Part shown: positions 14,979-63,405 of the stretch, piece after piece
Numbering within the stretch: position 1 is the stretch's first letter
Layout of the letters: each line of letters opens with the position of its first letter
From: an uncultured Candidatus Saccharibacteria bacterium
Lineage (GTDB): Bacteria; Patescibacteriota; Minisyncoccia; Phycocordibacterales; UBA918
DNA length: 64,000 bases
Direction of reading: 5' to 3'
Assembly (NCBI GenBank): GCA_964402035.1
Contig: CAYOAM010000001.1
Location: 371,558 to 435,557, forward strand
Notes under the pieces: model-generated
Seen by the model: only the letters and a program-made list of their open reading frames with translations
Database searches by the model: none
Told to the model about the DNA's origin: nothing
Position numbers and translations under genes: made by a program

Positions 14979-15167
14979 CTCCCCTTCACAGGGGCAGTAC
15001 ACCTTCAGGATTTTTTGTCTCCCTTCGGTCACAAAAAACCTCTGAAGGTCCCAAAACAGTCCCCCGGACTTTTTCTCCCTACGGGAGCAGTACACCTTGC
15101 TGCTACTTTTGTTGCTTCGCACAAAAGATACCTATCAAGGTCCCAAAACAGTCCCCCGGACTTTTTT
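14979..15167 (+). repeat. tandem direct repeat of two ~95-nt units, each ending in a terminator-like hairpin plus T-run, immediately upstream of tRNA-Glu
   Basis: The units share ...c(c/t)cc(t)-hairpin-gcagtacacctt...aaggtcccaaaacagtcccccggacttttt. The 3' hairpin agtcc-ccc-ggact is followed by TTTTT. Confidence 0.6.
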
Positions 15168-15239
15168 GGCCCTATCGTCTAACGGTTAGGACGGAGCCTT
15201 CTCAAGGCTCAAATCAGGGTTCGATTCCCTGTAGGGTCA
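15168..15239 (+). tRNA. tRNA-Glu (anticodon CUC)
   Basis: Cloverleaf fits. Acceptor GGCCCTA/TAGGGTC, D-arm GTCT..GGAC, anticodon stem GAGCC/GGCTC with loop TTCTCAA, T-arm CAGGG-TTCGATT-CCCTG, discriminator A. CCA is not encoded. Confidence 0.8.
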
Positions 15240-15261
15240 TGGTTTAAGTTTACTTCACAAA

Positions 15262-15290: not shown

Positions 15291-15729
15291 TAGTAAACTC
15301 ACCATGACCCTAAGCAGGCAACCTATGTTGCCTGCGTCGGGGAATCGAAGCGGCGCAGTATATCGCAAAGCGATACGAGCCGCCGTCCAGAAGTCTTAGT
15401 ATTTTAAATATTTTAGTATTTAAAATACTAAGAACTTCGGGGACGATCCAGAACCGGCAAGAGTCCTTACGGGACCCGTTTAGGTTGTATGATATTTTTT
15501 TCAAAAATAATCGACAACCTCTTGAGAAGCTACATGTATTCGCTTCTCAACCCTGTAGGGTCACCATTGACAGCTAGCACTAATAGGTTTGTAATGAATG
15601 CATTTAGAGCTAGCTGTAGAAGCATACGAAATCCCCTAAATTGATTAGGGGATTTCGTATGCTTCAAGATAAATCACTTTTGCAAGAGTTTTTCGGTCCG
15701 CGCCATACTGAATCAGTTATACTTGGATA

Positions 15730-58884: not shown

Positions 58885-59574
58885 TTATGAACCTTGTAAT
58901 CGAGCGTACCTTGAGAGGAGCTCCGTCTGCTGCAGTATGTGCCCATGCATTGCCTTTTCTACTTCAGCTTTAGTCGCCCCCTCCTCTAATTCTAACACGA
59001 CATCGAGGGCAAAGAGTTTCCAAAAATACCGATGCTCACGATCCGGTGGACAGGGACCGGTGTAGGTATTTTTGCCACTAGAATTTTTCCCCAACGCCCC
59101 ACCCGCCGCTTGATCCCCTTCTGCTAGGTGTGTAGTTGTAGCGGGAATGTTAAAAAGCACCCAATGATCAAAGACATCAATACCCATTCTTTCTTTCACA
59201 AAATTCGGAATATCTGGGTCTTCCATCAAAAGCACAAGCGACCGTGTCCACTCTGGAACACCCGAAATCTGAAGCTCCGGATTTTTGTTTTCCCCATCAC
59301 ACGTGTATTGAGACGGTATCAAGCCGCCCTCAGTAATAGCTGGACTGGTGAGTGAAAATGTGGATGTTGCTTTACTTGCGTCATTCGTAGGTGTAGCCTG
59401 CATTATTGGTTGCTTAGTTTGGTAAAAAATAAAAAACAGTGCAGCCGCAATGATCAAAAAGCCGAGACTCGAAAGCGTAAAAGCCAACCGCATACCCCAT
59501 CCTACCATGTTGAATCTCCACCATTTTGATGTACAATGCAGAGCGTTCGGATCAAAGACCCGAACAAGAAGCAA
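58885..59574 (-). CDS. YbhB/YbcL family (PEBP/Raf-kinase-inhibitor-like) protein with an N-terminal membrane anchor
   Basis: The PEBP core (LIPSQYTCDGENKNPELQISGVPEWTRSLVLLMEDPD). The true start is more likely the internal Met (MVGWGMRLAF, ~59508), because the long start abuts the tRNA-fragment repeat. Confidence 0.7.
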   Translation of the reverse strand: MLLVRVFDPNALHCTSKWWRFNMVGWGMRLAFTLSSLGFLIIAAALFFIFYQTKQPIMQATPTNDASKATSTFSLTSPAITEGGLIPSQYTCDGENKNPELQISGVPEWTRSLVLLMEDPDIPNFVKERMGIDVFDHWVLFNIPATTTHLAEGDQAAGGALGKNSSGKNTYTGPCPPDREHRYFWKLFALDVVLELEEGATKAEVEKAMHGHILQQTELLSRYARLQGS

Positions 59575-59598
59575 TTCCGATGTAGCTCAATGGTAGAG
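59574..59598 (+). repeat. 25-nt exact duplicate of the tRNA-Asn 5' exon start (attccgatgtagctcaatggtagag), followed by a structured ~110-nt insert and a degenerate anticodon-stem copy
   Basis: Identical to 59736-59760. Downstream at ~59710-59724 gctcgctgGgaacag mirrors the tRNA segment gctcgctgTgaacaa. The interval contains the hairpins gacaatttt...aaattgtc and cctct-gtaa-gaggg. Confidence 0.6.
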
Positions 59599-59737
59599 TG
59601 AGAAAGTCTGGGAGACTTTCGCAAGAGGTTGTCGACAATTTTGAGCTTGAGAGAAATTGTCATACAACCTGAACAGCCTCTGTAAGAGGGCTCGCTGGGA
59701 ACAGTTTGGTGAAGTGGAGGTAGGTACAAGTACATAT

Positions 59738-60065
59738 TCCGATGTAGCTCAATGGTAGAGCAGCTCGCTGTGAACAAAAAAGTTCCAATCGCAGCTTCCT
59801 AGAGAAACCTAGGTTGAAAAACAAGGTGAATTGCTGGAAACCCCTTTGGGGCAATCAGCAGCCAAGCCCGATCGTATCGCAGATACGATTTAGGGAAGGT
59901 TCAGAGACTATCCCTTCGGGGAGTAGCAGGATAACGTTAATCTTTGCGAAGCGCCTTGCACCGTCATTTTGATCAAACAAAATCGGTGATGATATAGTCC
60001 ATCCCTTTTAGCAATAAGAGGAGCAATGTAACGAGTTGGTTGTAGGTTCGAATCCTACCATCGGA
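59738..60065 (+). tRNA. tRNA-Asn(GUU) interrupted by a group I intron between anticodon positions 35 and 36 (exons 59738-59771 and 60028-60065)
   Basis: Exon 1 TCCGATG-TA-GCTC-AATGGTA-GAGC-A-GCTCG-CUGU. Exon 2 UAA-CGAGT-TGGTT-GTAGG-TTCGAAT-CCTAC-CATCGGA-G. The acceptor stem pairs perfectly and the discriminator is G73. After splicing the loop reads CU-GUU-AA. Confidence 0.7.
59772..60027 (+). ncRNA. group I self-splicing intron (256 nt) in the tRNA anticodon loop
   Basis: P1: exon GCUGU (59767-59771) pairs with IGS GCAGC (59791-59795), placing U:G at the splice site. Core elements are P aattgctggaaa (59829-59840), Q aatcagcagcc (59853-59863), R gttcagagacta (59899-59910) and S gatgatatagtcc (59987-59999). 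P2 is cctag/ctagg, P8 has a UUCG loop, and the intron ends in G60027. Confidence 0.75.
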
Positions 60066-60069
60066 GCAA

Positions 60070-60106
60070 AATAAAAAGAGCCACATTTGTGGGCTCTTTT
60101 TATTTT
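60070..60106. terminator. bidirectional rho-independent terminator after the tRNA
   Basis: An A-run, then the hairpin gagcc-acatttgt-gggctc, then a T-run (ctctttttatttt). Confidence 0.55.
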
Positions 60107-60378
60107 GCGTAGATGGAGGAAGTGAACAGTTTCACTTCCGTTAGGATTCGAACGACGGAGTATGTTGCAGAGCAACTACGAGTCGGTGCCCAGACAAATT
60201 TCCATTTGGAAATTTAGTCGAGGGAGAAATTCATACCATCGGAGCCCACGATAAAAGCCTTATCAATAGGGCTATTATCTTTGCGCCTCAGACAGGATTC
60301 GAACTAAAGCGCTTGTGTTCTAGCAACATTTATTAAAAATGCTATGCTTCGCGCAGACACCAGCGGAGGAAATGTGCA

Positions 60379-60925: not shown

Positions 60926-61660
60926 TCACGACCTTGGCACCATCTCCTGTGGAATCATCTTAATGGATAAATGAACTCGTTCAGTATTATAGTATCGCAG
61001 ATATTTTTTCAACGCACAGTTGATTGCACGCACATCAGTGGGTACATGGTCTAAACACTCCTCTTGGAGAGTTCTGTTGAAGCGCTCAATGTGTGCGTTG
61101 TCGTTTGGTTTCCCGATACGCGAATAGCGATGGTCATGCTTGATTCTGGAGACAAACCATGACGAGAACTCAGGTCCATGATCAGACTGCAGCATCGAGA
61201 ATCGAAAGGTGCAGTGTCGTGCTGCTTCGCGCACGAAACGCACACTGGTTCTGCCGTTCATGCGCGCGTATGCTTTCGCATACGCAACACGAGAGTTCAC
61301 GTCGATGAGTGAGAACACATACAGTCGCTTTTTCTGGTCAATCATGCGGTGGATGGTATCGATTTCCACTAAGGAACCTGGCCGTGCTGCGATCGGTCGA
61401 TCGATATGCGGGTGGTACCGTTTCCACGGACTTCGTTTCTTGAGGAGCCCGTGTCGTTCGATGGTACGGTGTACCGTATTTCGAGACACCATCACCCCCT
61501 CACGCATGAGCATCAGATGTATTGCTTCCGTACATCGCCCCGTACTGAGCCGCAGGCGTACAATCCGTTGTTCGACTGCATCGGGAATACTGCGTGGATG
61601 ATGACGAGGACGAGAGCTTCTGGTGGGTATGGTATGATACCCAATCCTCTTCGCTCTTCA
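60926..61660 (-). mobile_element. IS3-family transposase OrfB (DDE integrase core) fragment without a detectable orfA (truncated IS remnant)
   Basis: The 195-aa ORF carries the rve-domain pattern (LMREGV..., VEIDTIHRM, DHGPEF, IERFNRTLQEE). The same frame extends upstream to ~61660 without a stop (...IPDAVEQRIVRLRLSTGRCTEAIHL). No HTH orfA or slippery heptamer was found. The next plus-strand gene starts at 61903. Confidence 0.6.
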
Positions 61661-61902: not shown

Positions 61903-63405
61903 ATGAAGATTGAAGATGTTCTCGCCCGCCTCGATCATGAGCACAAAAACGGTGCCTCTGAAGAGGATCTCGCAAATACGGCTAAATCGATCATTCGTCC
62001 ACCTGCCGTCGCGCACCTTAATCCACACTCGACGAGGAAAATGGTGGGAACAAGGGAGTCGTTTGACAAGTCGAGCGTCACCATTTCGTTAGAAACCGAA
62101 CATGGGATGGCGACAGACGAGATTCGTCGTACTCTCGCGGAGACACTTGCAACGTTCGGCACACTGGAAGCACCTCCTGACATGTTTACGGCAGAAATTA
62201 GCTATCGCTGGGAATCGATTGCGGCATTTCTACGAGAAACGGAAATTTCGCCAAAGGTCAGCCATATTACGATTAGTCCGCATTACGCCACTATCGACAA
62301 GACGAAGCTGCGTATGCACAAACCCCGTGGCAACTCCGTTGATCTTAAACTGGACTACTGGCCGAACTACAAAGGTCCGCATATCGAGATCGCCACGAAG
62401 CACAGTGTGCAATTGCACGAGGAGATCGTACGGGCAATTCGTCCGTGGGTTACCTACTCATTCAGTAGGCCTGCATGGCTTCCACGTCTGAGGCGCAGAG
62501 ATACCACACAGATGCGATTCAATTTCGGCGGAGGCGGCGGTATTTCTTTTGCAGAATTCGAGCCCACGATCAATATTCCCGCGCCTGCAAACTTTCTGCT
62601 CGGCGTCGGAAGACTCTTTGGCACGAAACTACCGCTGCCAACGGAGTTCAGGAAGGCAGTTTTCAACAGCGACCGCCTTCTTGAGTACCTGCAGACAGCA
62701 AGCAGCCTCTTTAGCAAGCATCAAGATGCTGCGACGAACAAATACGAACCGCCGAGCGAGGAAGAGACAGCACGCATGTTCCATCAAGAGCTGCTCGTCA
62801 TCGATTCCTTCGGAAAGGACAAGTCGGGCAACGAGTGCTGGCCTTCCTCAATTGCAGCAGGCCGCGCTGCAGTCAGGATGATCCAGGAACATTTCGGGTG
62901 GAATCACCAGCACATGCAAGCACTCATGCTTGTAACTCCATATCCATGGAATCTTGGTGTGTGGATCACGCACGTATCGGATACATACGGCGTTGAACTG
63001 GAACCCGACTACCCTTCGTGCATTCCCGAGAAAGATACCCAGATCATTCGCTTGTGGTGTCTCCTTCGGGCATTTCGGAAGAGCTTTGCAGCTGATCCGA
63101 AAAATTCATATAGGCGCTACCACGAAGAATATCTTCACCCGACATACTTGTGGTCGAGCTACGTAGAGAAGTGTGACCTGAACGAAGTCGTCCACACGCC
63201 AAAGCCGATGCATGCAGATCTGCAGAAAGTCAGCTTCGGCCATGCGGACATACGCCGCGACAACAAAGACTTCTTCAAGGTGGAATGCTCAACTTTCGAA
63301 CCAAATACCTTGAGCTTTGCGCTTTCGCTCAACACGGGGTCCGATACACCGTTCTTTCCTTTCTACAACAGTGTTCTCAAGCAACTGGGATACACACTCG
63401 GCTGA
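61903..63405 (+). CDS. hypothetical protein (500 aa), no recognisable domain
   Basis: A long uninterrupted ORF with coding-like composition and a GGGGG loop (FNFGGGGGISF). It directly abuts the IS3 remnant. Confidence 0.5.
   Translation: MKIEDVLARLDHEHKNGASEEDLANTAKSIIRPPAVAHLNPHSTRKMVGTRESFDKSSVTISLETEHGMATDEIRRTLAETLATFGTLEAPPDMFTAEISYRWESIAAFLRETEISPKVSHITISPHYATIDKTKLRMHKPRGNSVDLKLDYWPNYKGPHIEIATKHSVQLHEEIVRAIRPWVTYSFSRPAWLPRLRRRDTTQMRFNFGGGGGISFAEFEPTINIPAPANFLLGVGRLFGTKLPLPTEFRKAVFNSDRLLEYLQTASSLFSKHQDAATNKYEPPSEEETARMFHQELLVIDSFGKDKSGNECWPSSIAAGRAAVRMIQEHFGWNHQHMQALMLVTPYPWNLGVWITHVSDTYGVELEPDYPSCIPEKDTQIIRLWCLLRAFRKSFAADPKNSYRRYHEEYLHPTYLWSSYVEKCDLNEVVHTPKPMHADLQKVSFGHADIRRDNKDFFKVECSTFEPNTLSFALSLNTGSDTPFFPFYNSVLKQLGYTLG

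Follow-up and report, generated by a model that had tools for sequence, protein, structure and literature searches.

At positions 59738-60066 of the 64-kb stretch of DNA analysed here (contig CAYOAM010000001.1; hereafter the window), we found a tRNA-Asn(GUU) gene whose anticodon loop is interrupted by a group I intron of 257 nt (59772-60028). The Rfam model of group I introns (Intron_gpI, RF00028) matched 59762-60021 with 88.1 bits and E = 3.9e-21 (gathering score 50) over its full length (model positions 1-253 of 253), and ARAGORN with intron detection, applied to the unspliced DNA, returned 'tRNA-Asn (gtt) i(35,257)'. A preliminary description made from the sequence alone had read the locus as a tRNA-Asn(GUU) split between positions 35 and 36 by a group I intron and had proposed an Rfam search and an intron-aware tRNA finder as checks; both agree with that reading, as do the covariation across 63 introns and the exon identity described below. 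Default ARAGORN called no tRNA at 59738-60066, its sole call in the 64-kb window being a tRNA-Glu, a miss that we attribute to a limitation of the tool and do not count as evidence against a tRNA-Asn gene.

The 5' exon holds the acceptor 5' strand TCCGATG, the D arm, the anticodon stem strand GCTCG and the loop bases C32, U33, G34 and U35, while the 3' exon holds the anticodon stem strand CGAGT, the variable loop, the T arm, the acceptor strand CATCGGA and the discriminator G73 at 60066; CCA is absent from the encoded 3' end. Excision of 59772-60028 gave a product that ARAGORN named tRNA-Asn(gtt), with a cloverleaf and the 7-nt loop CU-GUU-AA (the 73-base call corresponds to the 72-nt tRNA, positions 1-73, plus one base past the discriminator). 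Only with the junction 59771|60029 does the 5' exon end in U, the intron end in G and the anticodon loop measure 7 nt. We also tried the junctions 59771/60028, 59769/60029, 59771/60022 and 59769/60024, which gave 8-nt loops, a 5-nt loop or distorted stems and were rejected. The boundaries first proposed for the intron (59772-60027, ~256 nt) and for the gene (59738-60065) were therefore right at their starts and one base short at their ends: the terminal G is 60028, and removing the shorter segment leaves G60028 behind, with an 8-nt loop that ARAGORN cannot name, while G73 is 60066. The loop CU-GUU-AA and G73 expected after splicing were obtained once 59772-60028 was removed, and the G said to stand right before the 3' exon is G60028. 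Mapped features are listed in Table 1.

Table 1. Features mapped in the 64-kb window, with the evidence for each; paired percentages and compensatory pairs refer to the alignment of 63 introns.
Feature	Position	Strand	Evidence or remark
tRNA-Asn 5' exon	59738-59771	+	tRNA positions 1-35; ARAGORN before and after splicing
Group I intron, 257 nt	59772-60028	+	RF00028 match, splice tests, ARAGORN intron detection
tRNA-Asn 3' exon	60029-60066	+	U36 A37 A38, then rest of tRNA; ARAGORN
P1	59767-59773 with 59789-59795	+	exon GCUGU and intron GA pair with UCGCAGC; L1 of 15 nt
P2 hairpin CCUAG/CUAGG, GAAA-type loop	59798-59813	+	95.9% paired, 5/5 pairs compensatory
P3, CAAGGUG with CGCCUUG	59822-59828 with 59952-59958	+	99.1% paired, 3 compensatory pairs; in minimum free energy fold
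P4 UGCUGG/UCAGCA enclosing P5 CCCC/GGGG	59832-59860	+	P4 99.6-100% paired, 4 compensatory pairs
P6/P6a/P6b extended hairpin	59861-59900	+	P6 99.5%, P6a 96.3% paired, 3 compensatory pairs
P7, G-(A bulge)-GACUA with UAGUCC	59904-59910 with 59995-60000	+	6/6 pairs standard; 100% paired
P7.1, UCCC-UUCG-GGGA	59911-59922	+	4/4 pairs compensatory
P7.2	59926-59947	+	5/5 pairs compensatory
P8/P8a hairpin	59959-59988	+	94.9% paired, 4/5 pairs compensatory
J8/7, AUGAUA	just before P7 3' strand (59995-60000)	+	
P9 hairpin, GCAA tetraloop	60004-60021	+	90% paired, 7/7 pairs compensatory
Terminal guanosine (omega G)	60028	+	28 nt past S element
Terminator-like hairpin and T-run	60073-60106	+	inverted repeat; not listed by a simple terminator scan
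Structured element without open reading frame, ~140 nt	60107-60245	+	core match 60126-60230; past the terminator-like hairpin
Divergent second copy of the element	15323-15449	+	83 nt past tRNA-Glu (15167-15240); covariance model R1

All four conserved core motifs named in the preliminary description were located in the intron: P (AATTGCTGGAAA, 59829-59840), Q (AATCAGCAGCC, 59853-59863), R (GTTCAGAGACTA, 59899-59910) and S (GATGATATAGTCC, 59988-60000). The exon bases GCTGT (59767-59771) pair with the internal guide GCAGC (59791-59795) and place a U59771.G59791 wobble at the 5' splice site, as had been described. The helices of the window intron were derived by string search and every pair was checked as standard. 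P3 and P7, whose formation had been suggested as a further check, both form and make a pseudoknot, in which the guanosine-binding pair of P7, G59906-C59999, adjoins the bulged A59905. The joining segments J4/5 and J5/4 read AAA and CAA, respectively, and P6b is wholly Watson-Crick or G.U in the window. Rfam aligned a 39-nt stretch, corresponding to P7.1/P7.2, as inserted sequence that separates R from the 3' strand of P3. The minimum free energy fold of the window intron recovered P1, P2, P3, P4, P5, P6b, P8 and P9 (z = -3.69).

We then scanned species-representative genomes with a pattern made of R, S and the 3' junction, which matched the window once and 100 shuffles of it never. The scan listed at least 119 loci, and the counts that follow are among the matches listed. 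The genome of the window was not itself among these loci, an absence to which we attach no weight given the extent of the listing. Exon pairs could be rebuilt in 114 of them, and at least 108 of the spliced products were called tRNA-Asn(gtt) by ARAGORN, all split as CTGT|...G|TAA and all with an intron that ends in G before TAA. Six rebuilt pairs received no ARAGORN call and had 3' exons starting with TAAAAT, which look tRNA-Leu(UAA)-like; the five loci without a rebuilt pair had tRNA-Leu(UAA)-like (2 loci) or tRNA-Asn-like (3 loci) 3' exons. The host labels were mostly Patescibacteria, with Aminicenantes, Elusimicrobia, Omnitrophota, Deltaproteobacteria, Cyanobacteriota, Gemmatales and Binatia also represented, and these labels, being those of metagenome-assembled genomes, may be unreliable. 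The closest introns among the matches listed, about 65-70% identical to that of the window, came from Nomurabacteria (L064), Parcubacteria (L009) and Paceibacterota (L085 and L010). BLASTN of the window intron against relatives that included L064, L072, L085 and L110 gave E values of 1e-21 to 1e-35.

The relatives also differ in coding content. In 32 of the at least 108 introns the length was 519-630 nt, and most of these contained an open reading frame (ORF) of about 100-137 codons that starts a few dozen bases into the intron and runs as far as the internal guide, which places it in L1. Of three such L1 ORFs compared with the Pfam HNH model, one passed the curated cut-off and the other two narrowly missed it. 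An ORF filled L1 in about 30% of the related tRNA-Asn introns listed (L012, L015, L016, L021, L026 and ~25 others), and its last codons overlap the guide GCAGC, so that the endonuclease frame and the ribozyme guide share bases; the proteins end in ..TQLP, ..AQLP or ..VQPT. In the window intron we found no homing endonuclease ORF, in agreement with the preliminary description: the longest internal ORF on the plus strand has 52 codons and L1 measures 15 nt, and the intron is therefore an endonuclease-free form.

To the window intron we added 62 related short introns in a MAFFT alignment, in which it aligned full-length with the other members of the class. Across these 63 introns, 92.9% of the cells of the named structure were paired, against 34.7-45.2% when the 3' partners were slid by 1-3 columns, and compensatory changes occurred in 40 of the 62 pairs. 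The covariation score was 0.469, against 0.047-0.109 for the slid versions, and none of 500 shuffles reached the observed values. Every pair of P2, P7.1, P7.2 and P9 covaried. In P1, the pairs C32-G, U33-A, G34-C and U35.G were invariant in 63/63 introns, and the first base of the intron covaried with the base 5' of GCAG (GC 14, AU 8, CG 5, GU 4). The guide GCAG paired with CUGU, counting the U.G, in 63/63 introns, an invariance of the guide that the scan did not force. C32-U33-G34-U35 is a sequence common to the queuosine-family tRNAs, and since the invariant part of P1 pairs GCAG with these shared bases, we infer that a single guide could in principle suit the tRNAs for Asn, Asp, Tyr and His.

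The identity of the tRNA was examined from its exons. They carry the GUU anticodon, the pair U1-A72 and G73, which we take from the literature to be the identity elements of asparaginyl-tRNA synthetase; U1-A72 and G73 were also present in all of the at least 108 relatives listed. In a comparison with 105 intron-less tRNAs of the fetched loci, one of them a tRNA-Asn, the spliced tRNA was 85% identical to that tRNA-Asn, while none of the 18 other isotypes exceeded 74% (73% for the best tRNA-Thr).

The window gene is a further example of a known, experimentally validated class. Williams 2020 (bioRxiv 10.1101/2020.01.27.920355) raised the number of interrupted tRNA types in bacteria from 4 to 21, and its class 'Asn.4Ug', along with the confusion of this class with 'Thr.2Ug', is cited by Nakagawa, Amikura, Omae & Suzuki (mSystems 2026; PMC13011429). 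The latter study counted 28 introns at 35/36 in 4,934 complete bacterial genomes, Patescibacteria accounting for 19; in its set of 95 complete genomes from this phylum, such group I introns were present in 15 tRNA-Asn(GUU) and 3 tRNA-Asp(GUC) genes. The hosts of the published 35/36 introns are tRNA-Asn (GUU), tRNA-Asp (GUC) and tRNA-Tyr (GUA), all with GUN anticodons. Subgroup-specific covariance models assigned 25 of the 28 introns to subgroup IA, HNH endonuclease genes were found in 4 of the 15 tRNA-Asn introns, and a tRNA-Asn and a tRNA-Asp intron each self-spliced precisely in vitro, with mutation of the terminal G to C as the control (PMC13011429). The statement that the insertion occupies an unusual host site did not hold, given that the class was listed in 2020, its splicing was shown in 2026 and our scan yielded at least 108 further examples.

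The window intron is absent from the sequence tables of PMC13011429, whose Table S3 supplied the introns that we compared with it. It shares with the published 35/36 tRNA-Asn introns the host tRNA, the site CTGT|intron-G|TAA, the guide GCAGC, the core motifs and the phylum, as well as the placement of P7.1/P7.2. In the window intron, 28 nt separate the S element from the 3' splice site, against 28-29 nt throughout the published 35/36 introns, and its length of 257 nt falls in the published range and equals the published average. The nearest published intron (GCA_016699245.1, Paceibacteria) was 69% identical to it over a global alignment, and the experimentally spliced intron of GCA_016700035.1 was 60% identical, with the same architecture. 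The differences lie in the lengths of P5, P6b, P7.2 and P8a and in the HNH ORF in L1, present in 4 of the 15 published tRNA-Asn introns and lacking in that of the window. The tRNA-Leu(UAA) intron of Nostoc PCC 7120 (subgroup IC3; Table S4 of PMC13011429) was 49% identical. Like the window intron, the cyanobacterial and plastid tRNA-Leu(UAA) intron is small and ORF-less and builds P1 from anticodon-loop bases, but it is inserted at 34/35 and lacks P7.1/P7.2, whereas the window intron lies at 35/36 and has both. Subgroup IC3, with its compact core without P7.1/P7.2, was considered for the window intron and set aside, both hairpins being present. From the position of these hairpins between P7 and the 3' strand of P3, and from the published class of the relatives, the architecture appears IA-like. 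Phage IA introns lie in protein-coding genes, have additional peripheral elements (P9.1 and P9.2) and usually carry ORFs in P6. Extra hairpins between the P7 5' and P3 3' strands characterize subgroup IA, for example phage T4 td, in the classification of Michel & Westhof (1990).

We consider it very likely, with a probability of roughly 0.93, that the locus is a functional, self-splicing, IA-like group I intron without a homing endonuclease gene, inserted at 35/36 of the anticodon of tRNA-Asn(GUU) in a Patescibacteria (Paceibacteria-like) genome. Splicing would proceed as follows. Once the precursor is transcribed and the intron folds, the guide GCAGC would pair with C32-U33-G34-U35, plus G31 in the window gene, forming P1 with the U35.G wobble. 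From its binding site at the G-C pair of P7, a free guanosine would attack the bond 3' of U35, after which the last base of the intron, G60028, would occupy the guanosine site. The freed 3'-OH of U35 would then attack the bond 5' of U36, joining the exons into a 72-nt tRNA with the loop CU-GUU-AA. CCA would be added after splicing, because the gene does not encode it. The tRNA-Asn gene of the window is probably the sole tRNA-Asn gene of the cell.

Several points weigh against this reading. Splicing has been shown for other members of the class and is inferred for the window copy. The view covers 64 kb of the genome, and a second, intron-less tRNA-Asn gene may lie outside it. Partial copies of the gene ends nearby (59564-59598 and 60231-60245) show that rearrangement has taken place at the locus. 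In the comparison set, P7 and the CTGT/TAA junction are invariant in part by design, since the R and S motifs and GTAA were built into the scan pattern and CTGT was a condition of the filter. P10 is weak, with only 3 possible pairs, which are displaced from P1. Finally, the IA assignment draws on the place of P7.1/P7.2 and on the published classification of the relatives.

Some of these points would also fit an intron that has decayed into a non-splicing relic, leaving the split gene as a tRNA pseudogene while an intact tRNA-Asn gene elsewhere serves the cell. We regard this as very improbable: set against the partial duplicates of the gene ends, the nearby transposase gene, the 64 kb of genome in view and the missing endonuclease ORF, every helix of the window intron is fully paired, no core motif is damaged and the intron still ends in G, the exons give a perfect cloverleaf, the identical sequence occurs in two independent Logan assemblies, and the intron-bearing gene is usually the sole tRNA-Asn copy in the published genomes (PMC13011429).

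Even less probable is that the same intron is spliced two bases upstream on both sides, at 33/34, to give a tRNA-Thr(UGU). Annotation tools often shift the junction of class members by these two bases, ARAGORN and tFind giving the Thr call for many of them (PMC13011429), and a U (U33) does precede the alternative 5' site. The alternative intron would, however, end in A60026 instead of G, and U33 pairs with an A in P1, whereas U35.G is invariant in 63/63 introns. ARAGORN with intron detection itself calls Asn here, the exons carry U1-A72 and G73 and resemble tRNA-Asn (85%) more than the best tRNA-Thr (73%), and the spliced products of published relatives were sequenced with the 35/36 junction (PMC13011429). 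A chance resemblance, with no intron at all and flanks that are unrelated tRNA-like fragments, has the default ARAGORN miss as its sole support and is refuted by an Rfam E value of 3.9e-21, a diagnostic pattern with 0 matches in 100 window shuffles and covariation across 63 introns.

The genes that neighbour the tRNA-Asn gene are of the housekeeping type: a priA-like gene, def, fmt and genes for a hibernation factor, a glutaredoxin and a PEBP-family protein. The best named relatives of Fmt were from Kaiserbacteria (59% identity) and a 'Patescibacteria group bacterium' (61% identity), and the host is a Paceibacteria-like member of the Patescibacteria. The identical locus was found in two Logan assemblies (L001 and L002). 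Their contigs both stop at the base matching window position 60056, a site in the T arm (3' exon) that is 10 nt short of the tRNA end. The ending of two independent assemblies at one base suggests that a branch in the assembly graph, due to strain variation or rearrangement, begins exactly at 60056.

Upstream of the gene, 59564-59598 (+) copies tRNA-Asn gene positions -12 to +23 with 89% identity, 162 nt upstream and in direct orientation, and is then adjoined by a structured, ORF-less segment of 127 nt (59599-59725, +). The blocks of this segment, in the order GTAGAGTGAGAAA, hairpin, TTTCGCAAGAGGTTG, hairpin and ACAACCTGAACAGCYTCTGTAAG, are found again in two other Paceibacteria loci (L025 and L028), upstream of their intron-bearing tRNA-Asn genes, the hairpins between the conserved blocks varying in length among the three. 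In L025, a 30-nt block is common to the upstream and downstream segments. Only one promoter-like site was seen near the gene, at 59510-59537, and its place is upstream of the partial copy and not of the intact gene. Extra copies of gene ends at similar distances were found in 11 of the at least 108 related loci. Downstream, 60231-60245 copies the last 15 nt of tRNA-Asn (60053-60067), 178 nt away and in direct orientation, and the downstream segment is homologous to segments 3' of the tRNA-Asn genes of L064 and L107. The intron-bearing tRNA-Asn gene sits inside a conserved three-part module of upstream segment, gene and downstream element.

The downstream element belongs to a larger family. A scan of metagenome contigs with the 29 invariant core bases of the element recovered 69 copies on 67 contigs. 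In 43 of the 43 copies with a detectable nearby tRNA, this tRNA lay 77-193 nt upstream on the same strand, and the preceding tRNAs span 16 isotypes. At its end the element repeats 10-30 nt from the 3' end of its own preceding tRNA; the T-stem 5' strand of that tRNA (with at most one mismatch) was present in 30 of 39 parsed copies, and its acceptor 5' strand in 20 of 39. From its start, the element runs through the acceptor-5' strand, a hairpin, the T-stem-5' strand, A(A/U)UCGAAC, a four-pair covarying helix (GC 17, CG 16, AU 15), a GGA/GA loop, a second hairpin and GGUGCCCAGAC...GUCGAGGGAGA around a third hairpin, and it closes with the T-stem-3' strand, the acceptor-3' strand and the discriminator. 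An acceptor/T-stem mimic encloses a conserved, covarying insertion of ~110 nt at the position of the T loop. RNAalifold gave 30 pairs, 18 of them with compensatory changes, and the core was 97.4% paired, against 30-50% in slid controls. In 47 of 51 copies, folding energy was more favourable for the tRNA strand than for the opposite one; a strand test by G.U versus A.C counts (30 vs 21) was weak.

A covariance model built from 49 copies (R1) also matched the window at 15323-15449 (28.6 bits, E about 5e-6), past the tRNA-Glu gene, so that both tRNA genes of the 64-kb window precede such an element. The acceptor-5' mimic of this second copy reads GACCCTA, against GGCCCTA in tRNA-Glu, turning the G2.U71 pair of the tRNA into A-U; a clean 3' repeat was not found at 15323-15449. 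In two other loci (L157 and L129), two tandem units 177 nt apart follow one tRNA-Cys. Each unit has a terminator-like hairpin of its own, with compensatory differences between the two, and a separate copy of the tRNA 3' end. L132 carries the element together with the upstream sequence twice, ~3 kb apart (3295 and 6280), and ARAGORN found a tRNA-Asn only before the first copy.

The element had no match in Rfam 15 (E <= 1 in the window; E <= 0.1 in 18 loci) and none in the viral contigs scanned, and we found no description of the family in the literature searched. The genes 3' of the element are heterogeneous, lie in both orientations and are often accessory (DNA methylase, AbiEii, AbiEi, SET-domain protein), and for this reason we rejected the element as the leader of one gene family. 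Neither a tyrosine nor a serine integrase was identified by Pfam in 10 ORFs (6 downstream of the element on other contigs and 4 in the window). We tentatively propose, at somewhat less than even odds, an undescribed family, consisting either of RNAs that mimic the 'top half' of the tRNA and co-evolve with it or of ORF-less integrative mini-elements for which tRNA 3' ends serve as attachment sites. The flanking elements, rather than the intron, are the lead worth following.

Further features were noted beyond the downstream element. At 60276-60304 on the minus strand lies a fragment that resembles the 3' end of a different tRNA (GTTCGAATCCTGTCTGAGGCGCA). An inverted repeat of 18 nt with 94% complementarity (60276-60293 with 62486-62503) brackets ~2.2 kb, which hold an ORF with an rve/rve_3 integrase core (60926-61513, minus strand, 195 aa), probably truncated, along with ORFs that could not be annotated. 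The region 3' of tRNA-Asn looks like a patchwork of mobile-element remnants.

The intron of the window adds one more example to a class that is already described and experimentally tested, and our scan widens the published picture, which covers complete genomes only, to at least 108 species-representative genomes in which the gene is split in this way. Standard annotation misses such a tRNA-Asn gene, as default ARAGORN did here, and the genome would consequently be scored as lacking tRNA-Asn; missed split tRNAs are a known pitfall for completeness estimates of Patescibacteria genomes. If they are real and undescribed, the flanking elements would represent a new class of tRNA-linked structured RNA or mobile DNA, and this class would belong to a phylum with very small genomes.

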